From positions 1 to 47,371 of the forward strand of contig JAAZNJ010000004.1 of the NCBI GenBank assembly GCA_012798335.1: a DNA stretch of 47,371 nt, written 5' to 3'. Positions within the stretch are counted from its first letter, which is position 1. Every line of letters starts with the position of its first letter. Positions 4,087 to 26,231 of this stretch are shown here, one piece after another. The translations under genes were made by a program, and so were the position numbers. The DNA comes from Candidatus Woesearchaeota archaeon. GTDB taxonomy: Archaea > Nanobdellota > Nanobdellia > Pacearchaeales > GW2011-AR1. The notes beneath the pieces were generated by a model. The model had not been told where the DNA came from. It made no database searches and was given only the letters and a program-made list of their open reading frames with translations.

Positions 4087-5142
4087 TTAAAAATCCTCTT
4101 TTATTTCAGTTTTTAATTTTTTATATCCAAAAAAGTCAGTAGCATAATTATAGGCTCCTGCATTTAAAAAAGTGATTTTATCGCCAATTTTTATATTTTT
4201 TTTCAGCTTAACTCTATATCTAAAAATATCATCTCGAGTAGGAGAATTTCCTTTAATTAAAAAAAATTTTCCATCTTCCTCTTCTTTTAATTCTTGTTCA
4301 ACAAGCATTTTTGTTCCTGTCAATAAGTTGTCTAAAGCACAGTTATATAAACTAGTGTTTATAATGATATTGTTATCCTGTATCTGAATTATTCTTGTTT
4401 CAAGTTTTATACAAGGAGCAGATATAAATCTACCAGGTTCAATAATTGTTTCTATTCCTTTTTTATCAAGCCAGTCTTTTACTTCTTTAAGTTTTGAAAA
4501 AATATACCCAAATACCTCTTTATTCATACTTATATATCTAGAGGGTAAACCGCCACCAAGATTAACCATTTTTATCTCTTCTAAGATTTCTTCTGGCAAT
4601 GAATCTTTTATCTCTTCTAAGATTTCCCATTCTGTAAGATTTTGAGATTTTCTATGAATATGAATTCCTAATTTTTCTATATATTTATTCTTACTTATTT
4701 TTTTAATAATCTCTAAGATTTTATTAGAAGGAAGCCCATACACAAAATATTTTCCTGTTCCAATTCTATGCTCTTCAAATTTCATCCTTAATAAAAGCTC
4801 AATTTTAGATTTTTTATTTTTTATAACTTCTAACAAATTAGATAAATCAATTTCATTATCAATTACATATTTTTTTATTCCTTTTTTTAGAAGTTGTTCT
4901 ATCTTATTCTTTGATTGAGCCTGAAGAAAAAACCAGATTCTACTTTTGTTTTTAATATCTTTAATTTCTTGTTCTGCATGAATAGAAAAATCAATATTAT
5001 CCAATTCTTTAAAACTTTGTATGACTCTTCCCACAGTTTTATTTGTTTTATAAGAATAAGAAATTTTAAATTTTAAATTTTCTAATGTTTTTATTTGCTC
5101 TTTTAAAACTTTTTTTGATAAAATAAATTTTGCTTGTGCCAT
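4087..5142 (-). CDS. PLP-dependent decarboxylase, Orn/Arg/DAP decarboxylase fold (type III PLP enzyme)
   Basis: YSYKTN (PLP-lysine context) and the NLGGGLP glycine loop. Length is ~350 aa. It lies next to the deoxyhypusine synthase gene. Confidence 0.65.
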   Translation of the reverse strand: MAQAKFILSKKVLKEQIKTLENLKFKISYSYKTNKTVGRVIQSFKELDNIDFSIHAEQEIKDIKNKSRIWFFLQAQSKNKIEQLLKKGIKKYVIDNEIDLSNLLEVIKNKKSKIELLLRMKFEEHRIGTGKYFVYGLPSNKILEIIKKISKNKYIEKLGIHIHRKSQNLTEWEILEEIKDSLPEEILEEIKMVNLGGGLPSRYISMNKEVFGYIFSKLKEVKDWLDKKGIETIIEPGRFISAPCIKLETRIIQIQDNNIIINTSLYNCALDNLLTGTKMLVEQELKEEEDGKFFLIKGNSPTRDDIFRYRVKLKKNIKIGDKITFLNAGAYNYATDFFGYKKLKTEIKEDF

Positions 5143-5153
5143 TTGGATTAGTA

Positions 5154-6089
5154 TTATAAAAGATTTTCTTTTTCCATTTTTTCTAAAACACTCGTCATCA
5201 TTAATGGAAAAGTTATAGAAACATCTCCTATTACTGTAGCAGCTTGAGAATCGTCTTTAAGTTTTCCCCAAGATTTTGCTTCTTGAGTAGTTGCTCCTGA
5301 CATAGAACCAGAAGAAGCATGAGAAGTTGTCATATATACAGCATAATCAAAACCCCCAGATAATAATGCTGCAAAAATCGCATAATGTTTTGAAATGCTC
5401 CCTCCTAAAGAGATAAGTCCTTTTTTTTCATCAAAACTCAAATCAGTAGTAATTCTCTCCATGTCTTTTATTGTATCAACAAGAAAATCTTTGTTTTTTT
5501 GTTGGAACATATACAATTGAAATCCAAAAGAAGAATCAGCAATTCCAGGACAATAAATAGGGATATTATTTTTTGCTGCTTGATATAATACTGAGTTATC
5601 ATCTTTTAACATTAAACCAATTTCATAAATTAATTCAGAAGAAGACAATCTTTGCTTTTTTTTATAAATTTCAGATAATATTTTAATTATCTCATCTTCA
5701 AATTTCATATATTCAGTTGTATGAATGATTAAGTTACCAATTCTATTTTCTCCTTTTTCATGTAACATATTATCATCAACATTAAAATTAGAAATCTCAA
5801 ATTCACCTCCAAATGATTTTATTATATCCTCTTCTATTGAACCAGAAGTTGTTACTAAAATATTTGGAATTTTTAGTTTACATAATTGTGCAAAAAAGCC
5901 CCTTAATCCTGAACTAACCATGTTTGATGTAAATGTTAAAAATATTTTAGCATTATTTTTTTTCATACTAAGAATAATTTTTGCTGCTTCTGCAAGTTCA
6001 ACTGCTTGAAAGCCTAGAGAGTTAAAACTATCTACGAGTTCTTCAACACTCAAATTTTTATGCCATAAAAAATCTTTGACTTTTTTCAT
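5154..6089 (-). CDS. dys: Deoxyhypusine synthase
   Basis: Full-length resemblance to DHS. Motifs include SLGGSISKH and the active-site lysine context QEAKSWGK. The 311-aa length is typical for archaeal DHS. Confidence 0.8.
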   Translation of the reverse strand: MKKVKDFLWHKNLSVEELVDSFNSLGFQAVELAEAAKIILSMKKNNAKIFLTFTSNMVSSGLRGFFAQLCKLKIPNILVTTSGSIEEDIIKSFGGEFEISNFNVDDNMLHEKGENRIGNLIIHTTEYMKFEDEIIKILSEIYKKKQRLSSSELIYEIGLMLKDDNSVLYQAAKNNIPIYCPGIADSSFGFQLYMFQQKNKDFLVDTIKDMERITTDLSFDEKKGLISLGGSISKHYAIFAALLSGGFDYAVYMTTSHASSGSMSGATTQEAKSWGKLKDDSQAATVIGDVSITFPLMMTSVLEKMEKENLL

Positions 6090-14134: not shown

Positions 14135-14224
14135 GGCTCTGTAGCTCAGTGTTAGAGCGCTGCTCTCATGAATAATTAGTGTTGAGAAAGGCAGAGGTCG
14201 GGAGTTAAATCCTCCTCAGAGCCA
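14135..14224 (+). tRNA. tRNA with CAT anticodon (elongator Met or Ile2) and an 18-nt intron at 14171-14188
   Basis: Acceptor stem GGCTCTG/CAGAGCC plus A73, D-arm GCTC/GAGC, anticodon stem CTGCT/GGCAG, loop CTCATG|intron|A, T-arm GGGAG-TTAAATC-CTCCT. Loop CTCA pairs with intron TGAG in a BHB-like central helix. Confidence 0.8.
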
Positions 14225-19115: not shown

Positions 19116-19361
19116 TCATTTAAGAGCAGTTGATGCTGGAGAAATGCAAATTATAGTATCCCCTCTTAAAAAAGTTAAACCAAGACTTCTCTTGATTTCA
19201 CCGTTCTGTATCTCTTTGACATTATCAACAACCAAGTTGATATGTATATCAAAGGCTAAAAGGGTACCAACAAATTGCTTATCTCCCTTAAGATAAACCA
19301 AAACTTCTTGGCCTTTTGAAAGATTCAATAAGTCCAAAGGTCTGTCAATACTACTAACCAT
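19116..19361 (-). CDS. Sm-like archaeal protein (LSm/SmAP)
   Basis: 81 aa. The Sm1/Sm2 pattern is ...VLVYLKGDKQFVGTLLAFDIHINLVVDNV...LGLTFLRGDTIICI. Confidence 0.8.
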   Translation of the reverse strand: MVSSIDRPLDLLNLSKGQEVLVYLKGDKQFVGTLLAFDIHINLVVDNVKEIQNGEIKRSLGLTFLRGDTIICISPASTALK

Positions 19362-19390: not shown

Positions 19391-19495
19391 AGTTTCGCAA
19401 TTTTAGTCTTAAAAAAATAAGGAAATAGAGTTCTATTAACTTATTGTTGGTAAAATCTGCTTTGAATGTCAATTTTTAAAAAGTTTAAATCAGGT

Positions 19496-19684
19496 TCATA
19501 AGTTTTTTGATATCCTTATCGCTACATGTGTATAAATTTGTGTCTTTTTCAAGTTCTTATGCCCCAATAATTGTTGTATATATTTTATATCTGAACCAAT
19601 TTTTAATAAGTGTGTTACAAAACTATGTCTTAATGTGTGAGGTGTCATGTTCTTCTTAATTTTGAACGAAATTCCTTGTTGCAT
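19496..19684 (-). pseudogene. Tyrosine recombinase (Xer/IntI-type integrase) C-terminal remnant, 62 codons
   Basis: [42 protein letters not shown] carries the HxxR, second His and catalytic Tyr boxes. A stop codon lies 2 codons upstream of the first Met, so the ~200+ N-terminal residues are absent. Confidence 0.75.
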
Positions 19685-19779
19685 ATTTTATAAAAAAAGA
19701 AAGTGCTTAATTAACAAGAATAAGCCAATTGATTGCAAACTTTTTCCTATTAAAGTTAAATTTTTGGGGGCGGGTTGCA

Positions 19780-19856
19780 CTCTCGCTTTGCTCGGGGCAA
19801 TTAACGAGAATTTAACAGTTCATGATTCGGCTCACCCTCACCCAAATTTTTCTGAT
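19780..19856 (+). repeat. Direct repeat A, left copy (77 nt; 4 mismatches to 25720-25796)
   Basis: ctctcgctttgctcggggcaattaacgagaatttaacagttcatgattcggctcaccctcacccaaatttttctgat aligns without gaps to the right copy. Confidence 0.9.
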
Positions 19857-19952
19857 TACTAATGAGGGGTTTCACAAATAAAAAATGTAAAGAAATATAA
19901 ACAAATACGATCTTTTTAATATAAGTAAATAATAACTATTTAAGGTATAAAT

Positions 19953-21029
19953 ATGCTTGATAAATTTATGAATAAAATTGTAAGAGGAGATTGTATTCAA
20001 GTCTTAAAAGAAATACCGGATAATTCAGTAGATTTGATTTTCGCAGACCCTCCTTACAATTTACAACTTCGTGGCGAACTTTGGCGACCAAACCAAACTA
20101 AAGTAGATGCTGTGAATGATGAATGGGATAAATTTAATAGTTTTGAAGATTATGATAAGTTTAGTCAAGAATGGCTTAAAGAATGTCTACGTGTTTTAAA
20201 AGAAAATGGAACTATTTGGGTTATCGGTTCTTATCACAATATTTTTAGAATTGGGAAAGTTATGCAAGATATAGGTTTTTGGATTTTAAATGACGTTTTG
20301 TGGATTAAAACTAACCCTATGCCTAATTTTAAGGGGACAAGATTTAATAATGCCCACGAAACTTTAATTTGGGCATCTAAAAATAAAGATTCAAGATATA
20401 CATTCCATTATAAAACTATGAAAGCATTTAATGATGATTTGCAATTAAGAAGTGATTGGTATATTCCCATTTGTAATGGTGGAGAAAGAATAAGAATAAA
20501 CGGAGAAAAAGCACACTCCACCCAAAAACCAGAAGCATTACTTTACAGAATTATAATTTCTACTTCAAATCCTAATGATATTGTGCTTGACCCTTTTATG
20601 GGAAGTGGAACAACAGGAGCAGTTGCTAAGAAATTAGGAAGAAACTTTATCGGAATTGAAAAAGAAGAATATTATATAAAGATAGCAAATGAAAGAATAG
20701 CTAATGTTAAACCTTATGCTCATCAAACTTTAGCTTATCCTCTTGAAGCTAAAAAACCTAAAGTCTCATTTGGAAATTTAATAGAAGCAGGTTTAATAAA
20801 ACCTGGAGAAAAGTTGTTCTCAAAAGACAAAAGACATAAAGCAGAAGTTTTGACAAATGCAACAATAGTTTTAAATAATATTTCTGGCTCAATTCATAGT
20901 GTTAGCGCACAGGCATTAGGCAAAACTTCTAATAATGGCTGGACATTTTGGTTCGTTGAGAGAGATAATAATTTAAAAAGTATAGACGATTTAAGAAAAG
21001 AATATATGGAAAAGTATATTACTTTATGA
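19953..21029 (+). CDS. N6-adenine DNA methyltransferase, beta class, CcrM/M.HinfI family (probable GANTC specificity)
   Basis: 358 aa, near-colinear with CcrM. Shared segments: DLIFADPPYNLQL, VDAV.D.WD.F.SF..YD.F, IWVIGSYHNIFR.G, GFWILND..W.K.NPMPNFKGTRF.NAHETLIWASK, H.TQKPEALLYRII, LDPF.GSGTTGA.AK.LGR.FIGIE, SGSIH. Confidence 0.9.
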   Translation: MLDKFMNKIVRGDCIQVLKEIPDNSVDLIFADPPYNLQLRGELWRPNQTKVDAVNDEWDKFNSFEDYDKFSQEWLKECLRVLKENGTIWVIGSYHNIFRIGKVMQDIGFWILNDVLWIKTNPMPNFKGTRFNNAHETLIWASKNKDSRYTFHYKTMKAFNDDLQLRSDWYIPICNGGERIRINGEKAHSTQKPEALLYRIIISTSNPNDIVLDPFMGSGTTGAVAKKLGRNFIGIEKEEYYIKIANERIANVKPYAHQTLAYPLEAKKPKVSFGNLIEAGLIKPGEKLFSKDKRHKAEVLTNATIVLNNISGSIHSVSAQALGKTSNNGWTFWFVERDNNLKSIDDLRKEYMEKYITL

Positions 21030-21033
21030 GGTG
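21028..21033 (+). promoter_or_regulatory. Shine-Dalgarno-like GAGGTG for the endonuclease gene, overlapping the methylase stop
   Basis: tGAGGTGttaatATG places the motif 5 nt upstream of the ATG at 21039. This suggests translational coupling of the M and R genes. Confidence 0.4.
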
Positions 21034-21038
21034 TTAAT

Positions 21039-21902
21039 ATGATAATGGACTTTGAACAATTCAAAAGCATTCTTAATAAAAAGATTTTTGAAGAATCAAA
21101 AGCTAAACTTATTGAAAATATAGCAAAATCTCCAAGTAGGTATATTGGGCTTTTCAGACCCACAAAACCCAAAGCCAAAATTTTACAAAATCTCTTACAA
21201 TCTCACGAAATTCGTTTTGGTGATGCTTTTGAAATTCTGATAGAAGAATATCTAAAGAAGTTTAGTTTCACCATACTTGAGAAAAAGTTCTCAACAACCA
21301 ATGAAGAGGAGTTAAACATAGACCAATGTTTTAAGAAAAATGGTAAGATATATTTTGTTGAGCAAAAAGTAAGAGATGATCACGATTCAACAAAGAAAAG
21401 AGGGCAAATACAAAATTTTGAAAAGAAACTTAATGAGATGATAAATAAACATGGTGAAAACAATCTTATAGGAATTTTTTACTTTATAGATTCTGAACTG
21501 AAAAAGAACAAGAACTATTATGATACCGAACTTAAAAGAATGTCAAAAGCGTATGGAGTTACTTTACATTTATTTTATGGTGAAGAACTTTTTACATTCT
21601 TGGGACATTCTGAAATTTGGAAAGAAATTTTGAAATATTTAGCTGATTGGAAAAAAGAAATTCCAGAATTGCCAGAAACCAACTTTGATTTAAATACACA
21701 AAACAGTTTTGAAGAAATTAAAGATTTAAACCCTGCTTGGTTTAGAAGTATATTTGATAATGATGAGGTTTTTAATGACATTATCTTAACAATCTTCCCA
21801 GAAAAGAAAACTTTAAAGTTGCTTTTTGAATACTTTAAAACAAAATCTTCTGAAAAGACAATCTATAAAACTCTAACTGAATCATTAAAAAACAGGATTT
21901 AA
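21039..21902 (+). CDS. Putative type II restriction endonuclease partner of the CcrM/HinfI-like methylase
   Basis: Starts 9 nt after the methylase stop. It has a PD-(D/E)xK-like signature NID-x12-VEQK. No other family was recognised. Confidence 0.55.
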   Translation: MIMDFEQFKSILNKKIFEESKAKLIENIAKSPSRYIGLFRPTKPKAKILQNLLQSHEIRFGDAFEILIEEYLKKFSFTILEKKFSTTNEEELNIDQCFKKNGKIYFVEQKVRDDHDSTKKRGQIQNFEKKLNEMINKHGENNLIGIFYFIDSELKKNKNYYDTELKRMSKAYGVTLHLFYGEELFTFLGHSEIWKEILKYLADWKKEIPELPETNFDLNTQNSFEEIKDLNPAWFRSIFDNDEVFNDIILTIFPEKKTLKLLFEYFKTKSSEKTIYKTLTESLKNRI

Positions 21903-21908
21903 GTAAAA

Positions 21909-22006
21909 CTCCCCTAAAAAAAGTAAAAAAAGATTGTCCCCCTCGATTCTTGTTCTTGATGTGTCGCATTCGCTCATTTGATAGAACGCCACTAAAAATT
22001 ACTTTG
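21909..22006 (+). repeat. Direct repeat B, left copy (98 nt, identical to 24620-24717)
   Basis: ctcccctaaaaaaagtaaaaaaagattgtccccctcgattcttgttcttgatgtgtcgcattcgctcatttgatagaacgccactaaaaattactttg is identical at both sites by eye. Confidence 0.9.
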
Positions 22007-22359
22007 CTGACGCAAGTTTCCAGAACTCCGCTTTGCTCGTAACTGGAAACGAACTTAACAGGAATTTAACTGTTCGCAGGGTCGCTTCGCCTAAAACACC
22101 AAGCGTTTTCCCCTGCTCTCCCAAATTCAAAATTTGTGGAATGCCCCAAAATTCCTCCGCTCTGAAAAATAAACTTCATTTAATCGCACATGTTCAACGA
22201 AATTCAGGGGGCTAACGAAGGGGGCAATTTTATTATTTAAAGGCGAGAAAACTATTTCCGAAAATCTTCCGGAAAAATCATCACAAAGTTTATATACTTT
22301 AATGTTTTATTAAGTAATATTCGTAAATTAACTAAAAAACTTTGAGGGCGCAAAACAAA

Positions 22360-22692
22360 ATGGCAAGTCAAGCATTAGAGCAAATCTTAGAATTTGCACC
22401 AATTTTTGGGCAGACACGAATGTATCGAACAATAGATAGATACACAAGCGGAACAACAAAATTGTATAGCTTCGATCCACCTGGATTAATGAATCAACAA
22501 CCATTTCAATTCGGATATGATTTACCAGGAACAAACACACAGTTTCATTTTCATGGACCTGATGCTGATCACTTAACTTATGGTAAACTGGTAGATTACG
22601 ATAGAAACACCTTGTTTGAAGAAAAAAATAGTTTCAACTTAGCAATGAATGACTTAAGATTTGATCAAGGCGGATTTAAAAAGTTCCCTTAA
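22360..22692 (+). CDS. Hypothetical protein (110 aa)
   Basis: The track ORF starts at a TTG at 22342; the first ATG is at 22360 (MASQALEQ...). No motif recognised. First gene of the block bracketed by repeat B. Confidence 0.4.
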   Translation: MASQALEQILEFAPIFGQTRMYRTIDRYTSGTTKLYSFDPPGLMNQQPFQFGYDLPGTNTQFHFHGPDADHLTYGKLVDYDRNTLFEEKNSFNLAMNDLRFDQGGFKKFP

Positions 22693-22729
22693 TTTTTTTA
22701 TTTCTTTTAAGATTATTTGAGGTAATAAA

Positions 22730-23011
22730 ATGAAAGAATTGGAAATAACGATGGTTAAAGATCTCATCAATGTTTATCAATCTTATTTTGAAAAAGGTCT
22801 TACAGACGAAGTAAAAAAAAACGCTAAAGAGATTGAAAGTAAATATCTTAATTCTTCTCCAATTGTCAGATCAGATTTAACAAACGCGAAAGGAAAATTA
22901 ACCTATTTTTACGCAGATATTCCACCAGGACCTATAAGCAAAATTGAAGCAAAAAAAATTGTCTTGAATCTTGAAAAATTAAAACATAAATTGGAAAATG
23001 ATAACTCTTGA
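22730..23011 (+). CDS. Hypothetical protein (93 aa)
   Basis: GAGGT lies 7 nt upstream of the ATG. Its 3' end overlaps the next ORF by 14 nt, which suggests an operon. Confidence 0.45.
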   Translation: MKELEITMVKDLINVYQSYFEKGLTDEVKKNAKEIESKYLNSSPIVRSDLTNAKGKLTYFYADIPPGPISKIEAKKIVLNLEKLKHKLENDNS

Positions 23012-24068
23012 TTCTATTTTGCTTGATGCTTCTTCTTTTGTTAGTTCTGAGTTTGGTTTTGATGTTGAGCAATCAAAATTAAAGCCTTATTCTCCGGAGA
23101 ATTGGCAAGAGTTTTGTCAAACTAATAATTTTGATATAAATAGTTCTGGAATTTATGTTCCTGCTTCTTATTCTGCATATGTTAGAACAGATAGTCTTTT
23201 TTTAACTTCTAATATTTTTCATGAATTTTATGGTCATGGTTTGTTTGTTGAACATTCTCAAATTGGGAAAAGATTAACTGAAATAATCCAAAATAATGGT
23301 GATGAAAAAAGTTTTATGTTTGATGAGATCAGTCCTCAAGAACAAACTTTTGGTATTGCAAAACACAATATTCACAATTATGAGGGTTTTGCTGTTTGGC
23401 TTGAAGCTTTGCTTTGCAATGAAACAGGTAATTCTAAAGTTTGGCAATTAAAAAGAGATAGATTGCCTGATGATTTTGTTTCATTGTTCGAATATTTTCA
23501 GGATGTTGAACAAAGATTTTCTCGTTTTGGCTTAATTTCTCAGATGGGTTTTCCTAAACACTATGATGATGATAAAGTTTTAGGTGTTGTAAGAAAATTA
23601 TATGGTTCTAATTTTAATAATGTTGATTTTGTTGTTATTTATGGTTCTCAGAAACCAGAAAGCGATATTGATTTATGCGTTGTTTCAAGTAATCCTTCAA
23701 CTCAATATTTTAACGGTTGGCTTGATATTGCAGAATTAAATAGAGAAGATTTTCAAAATCGAATAAATAATTTAGATATTGCTCTTACTGATGCAATGTT
23801 TTCAGGAAGATTAATATTTGGAGATGGAATTACTTTTCATCAATATAAACAAACTATTTTAGAAAAACCAATTTCACAAGAGATGATTGAATATAATAAA
23901 CGAAAATCGAAATTACAAAAAGAATATTTATCTAGTTATCGAGATAATGATAGAACGAAAAAATTGTGTTTATCTTATATTAATAGTTTTTCTCAAAATG
24001 CTGAACAACTAATTTTAGGAAATAAACCTCTAACTTTAAAAACTCTTCAACAACTTTATAAATGTTAA
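22998..24068 (+). CDS. Fusion protein: N-terminal unknown domain with an HEFYGH motif plus a C-terminal minimal nucleotidyltransferase (Pol-beta fold) domain
   Basis: VVIYGSQKPESDIDLCVV fits the GS-x(n)-DxD motif of NTP_transf_2-type nucleotidyltransferases. The N-terminal half has FHEFYGHGLF...YEGFAVWLE, which looks like metal-hydrolase motifs (HExxxH, not the classical HExxH). Confidence 0.55.
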   Translation: MITLDSILLDASSFVSSEFGFDVEQSKLKPYSPENWQEFCQTNNFDINSSGIYVPASYSAYVRTDSLFLTSNIFHEFYGHGLFVEHSQIGKRLTEIIQNNGDEKSFMFDEISPQEQTFGIAKHNIHNYEGFAVWLEALLCNETGNSKVWQLKRDRLPDDFVSLFEYFQDVEQRFSRFGLISQMGFPKHYDDDKVLGVVRKLYGSNFNNVDFVVIYGSQKPESDIDLCVVSSNPSTQYFNGWLDIAELNREDFQNRINNLDIALTDAMFSGRLIFGDGITFHQYKQTILEKPISQEMIEYNKRKSKLQKEYLSSYRDNDRTKKLCLSYINSFSQNAEQLILGNKPLTLKTLQQLYKC

Positions 24069-24083
24069 AGTGTTTACAAAAAT

Positions 24084-24545
24084 ATGGATAATAATAACTG
24101 TATATTTTGCAAAATCGTAAAAGGAGAAAGTCCTTGTCATAAAATTTGGGAAGATGAAAAACATCTTGCTTTTTTATCAATCTTTCCTAATACTGAAGGT
24201 TTTTCTGTGGTCATACCAAAAAAACATTTTTCTAGTTATGCTTTTGATCTGCCTGATGAAGTATTAAAAGATTTAGTAATTGCATCAAAAAAGGTCGCAA
24301 AATTAATAGATTCTAAACTAGAAGATGTTGGAAGAACAGGAATGATTTTTGAAGGTTTTGGTGTAGATCATGTCCATGCAAAACTTTTTCCAATGCACGG
24401 TACTTCTGATATGAAGAAATGGAAAGAAATTAAATCAAATGTCAACAAATTTTTTGAAAAATATGAGGGATACATTTCTTCACATGATTATAAAAGAGAA
24501 GATGATGAAAAGTTGAAGAAACTTGCAGAAAAAATAAGAAACTAA
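24084..24545 (+). CDS. HIT-family (histidine triad) nucleotide hydrolase/transferase
   Basis: CIFCKIVKGESPCHKIWEDEKHLAFLSIFPNTEGFSVVIPKKH is the typical HIT N-terminal half. The triad region reads VDHVHAKLFP, with the third His replaced by Lys as read. Confidence 0.75.
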   Translation: MDNNNCIFCKIVKGESPCHKIWEDEKHLAFLSIFPNTEGFSVVIPKKHFSSYAFDLPDEVLKDLVIASKKVAKLIDSKLEDVGRTGMIFEGFGVDHVHAKLFPMHGTSDMKKWKEIKSNVNKFFEKYEGYISSHDYKREDDEKLKKLAEKIRN

Positions 24546-24619
24546 TTCTTTTAGAAAAAGAACCAAAATAAAAGCCCCCTCTAAAATCTTCTTTTTAAAA
24601 AAAAGAAACAAAAAAGCCC

Positions 24620-24717
24620 CTCCCCTAAAAAAAGTAAAAAAAGATTGTCCCCCTCGATTCTTGTTCTTGATGTGTCGCATTCGCTCATTTGATAGAACGC
24701 CACTAAAAATTACTTTG
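24620..24717 (+). repeat. Direct repeat B, right copy
   Basis: Identical 98 nt to 21909-22006. Confidence 0.9.
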
Positions 24718-24774
24718 ATTTCTTCCAGTGGAACATTGCATTAAAAATTAATTCCTCCAAGGATTCGTGGGCAA

Positions 24775-24860
24775 CTAACAGCGATTAAGAAGAAAATCCT
24801 TGCAGGATTTTGCCCAAATTTTCACTTCGTGGAAACTTCTCTTGATTGCATATGTTAGGC
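24775..24860 (+). other. attC-like imperfect palindrome ending in a GTTAGGC core
   Basis: Layout: CTAAC-a-GCGATTAAGAAG-[AAAATCCT tgc AGGATTTT + 24 nt]-CTTCTCTTGATTGC-atat-GTTAGGC. The outer CTAAC/GTTAG arms and the inner 12-14 nt arms pair, with 1-2 unpaired bases. Confidence 0.4.
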
Positions 24861-24923
24861 GTAATTTTCGGGAGCGCAACTTTTTAAGAACTTTTATAAA
24901 CATTTAGAACAATTACTATAAAT

Positions 24924-25670
24924 ATGGGGGTATACAATAAACCACTTTACTATGAAATTGCATTTAGCTTTGTTGATGCAAAAAAACAAGTAGACTTGTT
25001 TGAGAAATTTATTGAAAAATATAGCAAGATAAAAGTAAAAAGAGTTTTGGATATCGCTTGTGGACCAAGTTTGCAGTTAAGGGAACTCGCAAAAAGAGAT
25101 TATGAAGTTATTGGTTTAGATTTGAGTCTACCAATGTTAAAATACCTGCAAGAAAAAGCAAAAGAGGAAGGTGTTAGAATAGATACTGTTAAAGCAAACA
25201 TGACAAATTTTAAACTAAAAAAGAAAGTTGATTTTGCTTTTATAATGATGGGGTCATTTAGATTCAAAAATAATGAAGATCTTTTAAAACATCTTGATTG
25301 TGTTTCAAATTCGCTCAAGAATGGAAGTTTGTATCTTATTGAAAATATGGAATTAGATTGGCTAAGTTTCAAACCTCAAAGCTGGATCATGAAAAGAGAT
25401 GGAATTGAAATCAAGACAACTTACAAACTAAAACAAAAAGATCCAATTTTTCAAACATCCGAAGAAATTATTAGTTTAGAAGTGAATGATAATGGCAAAA
25501 AATTAAAATTCGTTGAAAAAAGAATTATGAAACATATTTATCTTCAAGAATTTCTGGCTCTTGTTAAATTAAATAATAAATTTGAATTTCTTGGTCAGTT
25601 TGAACGCTTCAAATTCAAAAAATTAAAGAAAGGATGTATGGATAATATTATTCTTTTGCGTAAAAAGTAA
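24924..25670 (+). CDS. Class I SAM-dependent methyltransferase
   Basis: Motif I is VLDIACGPS. An acidic residue after beta-2 appears in VIGLDLS. Length is 248 aa. Substrate unknown. Confidence 0.75.
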   Translation: MGVYNKPLYYEIAFSFVDAKKQVDLFEKFIEKYSKIKVKRVLDIACGPSLQLRELAKRDYEVIGLDLSLPMLKYLQEKAKEEGVRIDTVKANMTNFKLKKKVDFAFIMMGSFRFKNNEDLLKHLDCVSNSLKNGSLYLIENMELDWLSFKPQSWIMKRDGIEIKTTYKLKQKDPIFQTSEEIISLEVNDNGKKLKFVEKRIMKHIYLQEFLALVKLNNKFEFLGQFERFKFKKLKKGCMDNIILLRKK

Positions 25671-25719
25671 TTGTGATGCGCTCCCGAAAACTTCTCCGCT
25701 ACGCTACGACAACTCTGAG

Positions 25720-25796
25720 CTCTCGCTTCGCTCGGGGCAACTAACAAGAATTTAACAGTTCATGATTCGGCTCATCCTCACCCAAATTTTTCTGAT
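25720..25796 (+). repeat. Direct repeat A, right copy
   Basis: 77 nt with 4 mismatches to 19780-19856. Confidence 0.9.
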
Positions 25797-25837
25797 ATAA
25801 TAATGGAGATGATGGCTAACAAAACCTGAAATAGAAA

Positions 25838-25868: not shown

Positions 25869-26231
25869 ATGAAGAAAGGAAGAAAAATTACAGGTGGAAA
25901 ATACATAAAGGCTAGAAAGAAAAAACTAAGAGAAAAAGTCGGACAAAAACGAAAAGTAAAATTAGGTGAAGAAAAAAGAAAAGTAAAAAAAGTAAGTGGT
26001 GGAAATCTAAAAGTAATGATGTATTCTGGGAAATATGTTAATGTTCAAGAAAAAGGAAAATCAAAAAAGGTTGAAATAAAAAATGTAATAGAAACACCCT
26101 CTGATAAATTCTTAGCAAGGCAGAATATTATTACAAAAGGGACAATTCTTTTAACAGAGTTAGGAAAAGTAAAAGTAACAAACAGGCCTTCTCAAACAGG
26201 AATAATTAACGGAATACTCATAAAAGAATAA
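25869..26231 (+). CDS. rps8e: 30S ribosomal protein S8e (eS8)
   Basis: GRKITGGKY..ARKKK, GGN.KV, and NIITKGTILLTELGKVKVTNRPSQTGIINGILI fit the eS8 pattern. Confidence 0.8.
   Translation: MKKGRKITGGKYIKARKKKLREKVGQKRKVKLGEEKRKVKKVSGGNLKVMMYSGKYVNVQEKGKSKKVEIKNVIETPSDKFLARQNIITKGTILLTELGKVKVTNRPSQTGIINGILIKE

Follow-up and report, generated by a model that had tools for sequence, protein, structure and literature searches.

In this study, we analysed a stretch of 47,371 nt (hereafter the window, meaning the whole stretch) from contig JAAZNJ010000004.1 of a Candidatus Woesearchaeota archaeon (GenBank assembly GCA_012798335.1). The contig has a G+C content of approximately 26%, and the window carries the genes of LSm, S8e, TFB and GlyRS as well as split tRNA genes. 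Public records name the proteins of its island 'Candidatus Woesearchaeota'. An island of 6,398 bp separates rps8e (25869-26231) from the LSm gene (19116-19361, minus strand); it has a truncated tyrosine recombinase gene near its left end, followed by three blocks of genes and four repeat-bearing spacers. This island is a strain-specific insertion, and we believe that it probably holds the decayed cassette array of an integron-like gene-capture system of Woesearchaeota-type DPANN archaea. An earlier note on this DNA, made from the letters of the window, had proposed an integron-like array or a cluster of attC sites lacking integron integrase (CALIN), with serial integration of small elements as the alternative.

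The gene layout that the earlier note read between the LSm gene and rps8e agrees with the gene and family matches obtained here. The recombinase gene is represented by its last 62 codons (19496-19684, minus strand; PF00589, 1e-16), in line with the earlier count of about 60, and this C-terminal stump retains the HxLRH ... LLGH ... Y box. All the other island genes are on the plus strand. The first cassette-like block (19953-21902) is a type II restriction-modification pair of the GANTC class, which consists of a CcrM-like N6-adenine methylase with a RAMA domain (19953-21029) and a HpyAIV-family type II restriction enzyme (21039-21902; NF045832, 255 bits against a cut-off of 160). The second block contains two small unknown open reading frames (ORFs; 22342-22692 and 22730-23011), a Pol-beta nucleotidyltransferase of 356 aa (22998-24068) and a HIT-family hydrolase (24084-24545). 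Within it, the 108/116-aa ORF, the 93-aa ORF and the nucleotidyltransferase form an apparently portable three-gene cassette (22217-24068). The third cassette-like block is a class I S-adenosylmethionine (SAM)-dependent methyltransferase gene (24924-25670). No transposase was found among the island genes, none of the blocks contains a recombinase or replication gene of its own, and six-frame translation of the spacers gave no convincing coding remnants. Exact-sequence look-ups of three island proteins returned no record.

The G+C content of the island is 0.300, compared with 0.260 for the remainder of the window. The other 6.4-kb windows have a mean of 0.258 (sd 0.009) and a maximum of 0.282, so that the island exceeds all of them. 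The earlier description of G+C-rich island genes holds for the island as a whole, but the excess lies mainly in the spacers (0.30-0.39), whereas the genes are at 0.275-0.305 with one gene at 0.353. The GAGG-type ribosome-binding sites that had been described were found upstream of three island genes.

In sister contigs from four other samples, whose LSm and/or S8e proteins are identical to those of the window, the LSm|rps8e junction is in every case empty and 101 nt long; a search for such an empty junction had already been proposed in the earlier note. Flank alignment to these contigs places the inserted DNA at 19430-25827; against sister contig L001, the left flank aligns until 19429 (L001 9967) and the right flank aligns from 25828 (L001 9960). 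Because the junction of the sister contigs is empty, the island is an insertion, and its ends are defined. It is flanked by two copies of an 8-bp direct repeat, GAAATAGA (left copy 19422-19429, right copy 25828-25835), and the empty site in the sister contigs has one copy only, GAAACAGA. Since the ends map to 19430 and 25827, the recombinase stump is inside the island, 66 nt from the left end, and not outside it as had been supposed. A recombinase gene at the edge is the arrangement of ordinary integrative islands.

The terminal 22 nt of the island (19430-19451; minus strand, ACCAACAATAAGTTAATAGAAC) may serve as an end site of the inserted platform. In contig L093, the closest relative, the conserved motif ACAAACAATAAGTTGCAGAAC is found at a similar place past the recombinase stop codon; the motif is common to the window and L093 only, and the sequence from the stop codon to the motif is not conserved. 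The recombinase gene of L093 likewise abuts core genes: directly past it (L093 3520-3830) are a 5S-rRNA-like sequence and an apparent intron-containing tRNA, for which ARAGORN made no call, followed by split rpoB genes. In the island itself, ARAGORN and Rfam found no tRNA or other RNA gene, there is no tRNA target, and the ends carry no terminal inverted repeats. Three other accounts of the island ends were rejected. A transposon is at odds with the ends lacking terminal inverted repeats and with the absence of a transposase. A split integrase of the Sulfolobus spindle-shaped virus (SSV) type would not fit a stump whose break faces into the island, with no N-terminal fragment anywhere in the island and no tRNA target. 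The 77-nt repeats described below are internal and could not be the attachment sites of the island, as the empty site sets the ends at 19430 and 25827.

The spacers of the island share several short modules, which were confirmed at the coordinates claimed for them and were found nowhere else within the 47 kb. CGCTTYGCTCG is present in three copies against 0.06 expected, a count that was reached in none of 100 shuffles; GGGCAAYTAAC and AATTTAACWGTTC have three exact copies each, and CCCAAATT is found in all four spacers. The CCGAAAA...CTTC module holds approximately only; a 14-nt exact inverted match connects 24865-24878 with 25677-25690. The 77-nt direct repeat of the earlier note (D2, 19780-19856 and 25720-25796) is 95% identical (E 9e-32). 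In addition, there is a 98-nt direct repeat that the note did not mention, D1, with copies at 21909-22006 (D1a) and 24620-24717 (D1b) on the plus strand, which are 100% identical (E 1e-53).

Arranged along the plus strand, the modules appear as four sites in different states of preservation. Half-site S1 (19780-19856) is the first copy of D2 (D2a); its GC-rich lead-in is followed by an R''-like AATTAAC (19799-19805), the 5' arm of the stem, hairpin 1 and a CCCAAAT core (19841-19847). Composite site S2 (22053-22198) begins with an R''-like ACTTAAC (22053-22059) and a 5' arm, has CCCAAAT at 22120, an extra insert of approximately 50 nt and ACTTC at 22173, and finishes with a 3' arm that belongs to a different class, followed by a degenerate R' (ATGTTC, 22190-22195). 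Its part at 22055-22130 is 95% identical to L054 2351-2427, and its part at 22133-22184 is 90% identical to L021. Site S3 (24773-24860) is the sole complete folded site in the window: it runs from R'' AACTAAC through a 5' arm, hairpin 1, CCCAAAT (24813), hairpin 2, ACTTC and a 3' arm to R' GTTAGGC, and its stem arms are partly mismatched. Half-site S4 (25720-25796; CCCAAAT core 25781-25787) is the second copy of D2 (D2b), and S1 and S4 both end at the same point inside hairpin 2, without a 3' arm. With element model R2, S3 was the only significant match in the whole window (49.5 bits, E 1.3e-9), S1 and S4 gave weak partial matches of 12.3 and 15.3 bits, respectively, and S2 was not detected as a single unit. 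The model had no match elsewhere in the window or in the sister loci.

Spacers of contigs that carry homologous nucleotidyltransferase units align with the spacers of the window. Scanning of metagenome contigs with a specific pattern of the family found more than 120 stretches among the matches listed, and a looser pattern gathered 181 unique elements. The element is approximately 90 nt long, with a span of 74-110 nt from TAAC to GTTA, and consists of nnnTAAC, A(A/G), a 10-nt arm, hairpin 1, CCCAAAT, hairpin 2, ACTT(C), the complementary arm, (C/T)GA and TGTTAnnn. By these alignments, the spacer modules of the window are pieces of elements of this structured family. Neither the 77-nt module pair, the 98-nt repeat nor the family pattern was found in viral contigs, and a search of species-representative genomes, made with the window-specific module pair only, gave one chance match, in a spirochaete. 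The island spacers and an intact array had no match in Rfam 15 at the gathering threshold or at E ≤1.

The folding of single spacers was uninformative (z-scores from -0.1 to -3), and the structure emerged from comparison only. The stem is perfect over 10 bp in 122 of 177 elements, and the set includes 49 distinct sequences of the 5' arm and 42 of the 3' arm. The mean Watson-Crick pairing is 9.3 of 10 positions, compared with 6.2 when the partners are shuffled. RNAalifold with 40 diverse copies gave 24 pairs, 15 of them with compensatory double changes, and predicted a three-way junction built from a single long stem, which has a bulge of 2 nt, and two small hairpins. The structure of the element is under selection. 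On the gene-sense strand, A:C mismatches in the stem (48) are more frequent than G:T mismatches (14). Such an excess points to folding of the bottom strand, as in the attC sites of integrons, and is the reverse of what is expected of a sense RNA, but we regard this mismatch bias as suggestive only.

The order of elements within arrays provides evidence about how they are exchanged. When 63 non-redundant pairs of neighbouring elements were compared, the triplet in front of TAAC was the exact reverse complement of the one behind the GTTA of the preceding element in 39 of them, whereas 2000 shuffling trials gave a mean of 7.7 and a maximum of 17. Inside one element the same match is at chance level (25 of 181, with 18 expected). 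Because the rule holds only between neighbours, the outer box is complementary across the cassette and not within the site. We believe that these triplets are the signature of exchange inside GTT(A) and of circularisable cassettes, which is the defining logic of integrons. Units that follow the rule range from 246 to 3616 bp, with a median of 750 bp. Arrays contain up to eight strictly co-oriented elements in 10-11 kb (L016 and L043), and the orientation of the elements is constant even where the enclosed gene is reversed, as with the NUDIX gene of L010 and an 85-aa ORF of L016. Of the cassette ORFs, 25 of 38 are co-oriented with the array and 13 are reversed. In this family, two or more co-oriented sites with spacings below 4 kb separate mostly co-oriented short ORFs, and the outer core agrees with RYYYAAC / GTTRRRY, consistent with crossover in GTT. 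Read from the sequence, the cassettes appear to have their own TATA-like promoters.

Several genes of the window recur in such arrays. The nucleotidyltransferase has 115 homologues (37-87% identity), and the three-gene unit (22217-24053 of the window) is 93% identical in DNA to contigs in which its neighbours differ. One nucleotidyltransferase cassette is seen behind three stem types with differing neighbours, and L010 and L011 have a common cassette and site up to the GTTA and diverge beyond it. These comparisons indicate that the three-gene unit behaves as a mobile cassette. The HIT gene is the first cassette by the recombinase in L093 and L024; in the window, it is fused behind the nucleotidyltransferase cassette without an intervening site. 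A module of the D1 type, conserved in sequence (...GATTCTTGTTCTTGATGTGTCGCATTCGCTCATTTGATAGAACGCC...), follows the last cassette gene and precedes the folded site in at least 13 other contigs, for example at L044 1185-1270, L025 687-748 and L015 10894-10943, and RNAalifold found no consensus structure for it across contigs.

The composition of these cargo genes was observed in some further contigs. In L009-L020, L135 and L022, the three-gene unit consists of ORFs of approximately 110 aa and 93-105 aa and a nucleotidyltransferase of 354-357 aa, whose large N-terminal domain matched nothing by which it could be named; Pfam, NCBIfam and PADLOC gave no assignment for the unit beyond the nucleotidyltransferase fold. 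L016 38-5581 contains two restriction-modification units, each bounded by folded sites, the first with a HinfI-family enzyme and an N6/N4 methylase and the second with another methylase and a 378-aa partner. Since the L016 array carries such units, restriction-modification of the GANTC type seems to be a recurrent cargo of the platform.

The stump in the window is 81% identical to residues 212-258 of the 269-aa recombinase of L093 and has 78% nucleotide identity to it. The window lacks approximately 205 N-terminal codons of this gene as well as its upstream junction site, and no recombinase-like reading frame was found upstream of the stump. A profile of the stump relatives recovered nine full-length tyrosine recombinases (270-297 aa) and one independent fragment from the fetched contigs. 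In the window and in all 10 independent contigs that bear a recombinase, the recombinase gene is divergent from the array, which lies on its 5' side; there is one recombinase per array, always in the same position. Seven of nine independent contigs have a GTTA with a matching triplet in the interval that separates the recombinase gene from the first element (P ~2e-7); this GTTA is 88-95 nt from the start codon in four contigs, and in two contigs the junction site resembles a lone 3' arm. The sequence of the junction site is unlike attI1, and the corresponding region is deleted in the window. By analogy with integrons, this junction GTTA would have the position and role of attI.

The best NCBIfam match of the array-linked recombinases is the archaeal XerA family NF040815 (201-239 bits against a cut-off of 220, with four of the nine above it), and the best solved-structure match is XerA of P. 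abyssi, with the L115 recombinase colinear with 4A8E. Against the integron integrase family TIGR02249, the nine recombinases score 168-213 bits, below the cut-off of 265, and the match falls into two pieces that skip profile positions ~178-237, the region of the additional domain. Similarly, when the L115 recombinase is aligned with VchIntIA (2A3V), IntI4 residues 188-241 have no counterpart. By these comparisons, the array-linked recombinases are XerA-like and lack the additional domain of IntI. Two observations concern the diversity of these enzymes. The tail VRSPLDN of the L115 recombinase (4954-5775, plus strand) aligns with the C-terminal tail of VchIntIA despite the lack of an additional domain, and the tails of the window stump and of L093 are of the ...DIKKLANLL type; as these C-terminal tails differ, at least two recombinase subtypes are linked to arrays. 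A homologue search with the stump as query returned only proteins of 54-107 aa (P0117-P0182), tyrosine-recombinase C-termini with 55-85% identity to the stump, from many DPANN and other archaeal contigs, some of them very long. The small sizes are probably an effect of a length filter in the search, or else truncated recombinase genes are common in these lineages, and these proteins did not discriminate between IntI and Xer.

In intact relatives, an XerA/IntI-like recombinase of 270-297 aa without an additional domain lies at one edge, then comes a putative junction site ending in GTTA approximately 90 nt upstream of the recombinase start, and then co-oriented cassettes, each of which ends in an imperfect hairpin site of approximately 90 nt with a covarying 10-bp stem. 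The linked recombinase would be the acting enzyme, and strand exchange would take place inside GTTA, at a predicted position of cleavage. Because exchange would occur inside GTTA, a circularised cassette would rebuild a fully paired outer box. Such an exchange would follow the logic by which attC recombines with attI or with another attC. A folded single strand, for which the pattern of mismatches would favour the bottom one, is the probable substrate. We believe that the whole platform probably arrived at the locus as one piece, through integration by a tyrosine recombinase across the 8-bp overlap GAAATAGA. It resembles an integrative island in the recombinase 66 nt from the end, the short flanking direct repeats and the empty site in relatives; it differs from one in that the target is an intergenic AT-rich 8-mer instead of a tRNA gene and that the cargo is a cassette array. 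The three blocks of the window are frozen in place, because the recombinase is reduced to 62 codons, the junction site is gone and one intact site is left. The window thus holds a frozen relic of the integron-like system, and the earlier suggestion of a decaying array is borne out: beside the recombinase stump, a single site is intact, another is composite and two are halves.

Integrons are defined by IntI with its additional domain together with attC sites, and this domain is thought to let a tyrosine recombinase handle folded single-stranded sites. The integron-like layout that the earlier note had recognised is strongly supported here. As in integrons, a tyrosine recombinase is divergent from a co-oriented array, a putative simple junction site adjoins the recombinase gene, cassettes with a median of ~750 bp each end in an imperfect hairpin nnnTAAC ... 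GTTAnnn, the crossover would lie inside GTT(A) and thereby assign the outer triplet of a site to the cassette next to it, and the mismatches hint at bottom-strand folding. The sequence of the site is kept within a lineage, as in sedentary chromosomal integrons with Vibrio cholerae repeat (VCR)-like sites. On the other hand, the recombinases here are XerA-sized, the cassettes have apparent TATA-like promoters of their own, about one third of the cassette ORFs are reversed, and the junction looks like a lone 3' arm. The sites also differ from attC: they form a three-way junction with invariant unpaired CCCAAAT and ACTT, the R-L box stretch is mostly paired where canonical attC has an unpaired central spacer, and the 2-nt GA bulge is on the L'-R' arm, whereas the extrahelical bases of attC are on the R''-L'' arm.

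Integrons are known from archaea, among them members of GTDB Nanoarchaeota (Ghaly et al. 2022, Sci Adv, PMC9668308), and a canonical integron or CALIN, with an IntI-type integrase and ordinary attC sites as in the archaeal metagenome-assembled genomes of that study, would account for the divergent recombinase and the co-oriented cassettes. It would also be consistent with nnnTAAC / GTTAnnn, which fits RYYYAAC / GTTRRRY in many copies, and with a TAAC-to-GTTA span that is within the size range of attC. However, the surrogate attC covariance model R1, built from seven published attCs of Ghaly et al. (aadA7 and six archaeal ones), gave only noise and no significant match on the window island and six DPANN arrays with filters off, yet in a class 1 integron with four cassettes its top four matches were the four attCs on the right strand (60.5, 20.8, 19.2 and 10.5 bits). 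None of the attCs listed in the supplement of Ghaly et al. contains GATGTTA or CCCAAAT. As no canonical attC was detected with the surrogate model, the CALIN definition (at least two canonical attCs and no IntI within 4 kb) does not describe the island; nor were any of the nine full-length relatives of the IntI type by their TIGR02249 scores, the skipped domain region and the unmatched IntI4 residues, while the window stump does not include the relevant region. The window is CALIN-like as an array remnant without a working recombinase, but it has a single complete site, which is not a canonical attC, and because the recombinase stump is still adjacent, we regard it as a decayed complete platform and not as an orphan cluster. 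Together with the conserved CCCAAAT/ACTTC, the three-way junction and the bulge on the arm opposite the extrahelical bases of attC, these surrogate tests largely refute membership of canonical integrons or CALINs, and we consider it very unlikely.

The XerA-like character of the recombinases raises the question of whether the elements are sites of the housekeeping, dimer-resolving XerA and the blocks Xer-dependent modules like the pdif modules of Acinetobacter or the integrative mobile elements exploiting Xer (IMEX; CTX-phi and TLC-phi), which also combine the Xer type of recombinase with small accessory modules bounded by recombination sites. The NF040815 scores and the structural match to P. 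abyssi XerA agree with this, and so does GATGTTAAAT, which we take to resemble the XerD arm of bacterial dif. Nevertheless, pdif modules and IMEX use 28-bp duplex dif-like sites and the XerC/D of the host, with pdif orientation alternating, whereas here there are co-oriented hairpins of ~90 nt and a dedicated recombinase that moves with the island and is absent from the empty site of the sister genomes. No dif-like duplex with two 11-bp arms and a 6-bp centre is present, a putative dedicated junction site lies ~90 nt from the recombinase start, and the covariation and the triplet rule indicate selection on hairpin pairing, which duplex Xer sites do not need; we regard this explanation as unlikely. 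Serial site-specific integration of small independent elements into one attachment site, with the spacers as attL/attR scars, would explain the repeated site-like sequence between the blocks, the hybrid arm combinations of S2 and of ~10% of the family, and the 77-nt and 98-nt direct repeats. It is highly improbable in our opinion, given that no block has its own recombinase or replication gene, that the units are small (from 246 bp), that there is only one recombinase per array and its position is constant, that the island as a whole has its own ends with the 8-bp repeat, and that other arrays also contain the nucleotidyltransferase module as a cassette. We also give very little credence to an ordinary horizontally acquired gene cluster whose elements would be either miniature transposons or structured RNAs, for instance terminators, processing signals or genes of small RNAs. 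The elements are GC-rich, structured, intergenic and usually co-oriented with the downstream genes, and their stems covary strongly, all of which would suit RNAs. But their orientation follows the array and not the enclosed gene, their mismatches favour folding of the antisense strand, Rfam recognises neither the window nor the intact array, and no RNA or transposon model predicts the triplet rule across a cassette. Individual elements lack target-site duplications, and there are no copies elsewhere in the 47 kb or at the sister loci; a miniature inverted-repeat transposon was rejected for this last reason, as well as for stems that vary yet stay complementary and for the ordered arrays by a recombinase.

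Some observations weigh against a decayed integron-like platform. The support for it is computational throughout, and R1 is a surrogate and not the attC model of IntegronFinder. A single stem position contributes most of the bottom-strand bias, which may stem from a few lineages. Approximately 10% of the elements are hybrids whose 5' and 3' arms are of different classes, so that the long stem cannot form; they were seen in L048, L059, L060, L081, L083, L098, L115, L116, L118, L129 and L140 and in S2 of the window. A crossover confined to GTTA does not produce hybrid arms, which implies a second exchange point, perhaps at the conserved CCCAAAT, or homologous recombination between sites. The 8-bp repeat at the island ends is AT-rich and could be microhomology from illegitimate recombination. 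Within the window, the triplet rule fails both between S2 and S3 (R' GTTCAAC and R'' AACTAAC) and between S3 and S4 (R' GTTAGGC and R'' AACTAAC). Because the sites of the window break the pairing rule, the cassette status of the three blocks rests on analogy and, for block 2 and the HIT gene only, on direct homology. Finally, the model does not account for the end point that S1 shares with S4, or for the perfect D1 repeat of 98 nt.

An integron in an archaeon is not new in itself, because archaeal integrons are known (PMC9668308). What appears to be new is the pairing of an XerA-like recombinase that lacks the additional domain with a distinct three-way-junction site. We found no prior description of such a system in the full-text literature, where journal coverage was partial, or in the 2021 review of archaeal tyrosine recombinases. 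We lean, by a modest margin, towards the view that the DPANN platform is an undescribed class, characterised by this type of recombinase, its own junction and attC-like sites of ~90 nt with a three-way junction.

If this is true, cassette logic with an XerA-like enzyme and a different hairpin would challenge the view of integrons that centres on IntI and its additional domain. The platform could have invented cassette recombination at folded sites independently, or it could be an early branch that shows the origin of integrons from Xer recombinases; it would offer a second independent test case for structure-specific recombination and make this origin directly testable. The DPANN archaea, with their tiny genomes, would then have a large pool of accessory genes in arrays that are missed by searches of the IntegronFinder type, with restriction-modification systems, nucleotidyltransferase modules, HIT, NUDIX and HD hydrolases and methyltransferases as cargo. 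Intact versions of the platform are widespread in environmental archaeal DNA, and the island of the window accounts for a strain-specific difference of 6.4 kb, including a restriction-modification system, and shows the platform after its death.

A few minor features were noted in the window. Compared by eye, the D1 module was dropped as a K-turn or C/D-box and a CYGAUG motif as a hammerhead, since the defining boxes were lacking. The window also contains, at 14135-14224 (plus strand), a 90-nt tRNA found by Rfam (54.5 bits) and not reported by ARAGORN, which is probably an intron-containing archaeal tRNA. The stretch of ~70 nt past the stop codon of the HIT gene (24546-24615; AAAAGCCCCC...AAAAGCCCCTCCCC) is another recurring intergenic module, with relatives of 81-93% identity in at least nine other contigs (L074, L105, L081, L122, L057, L052 and others).

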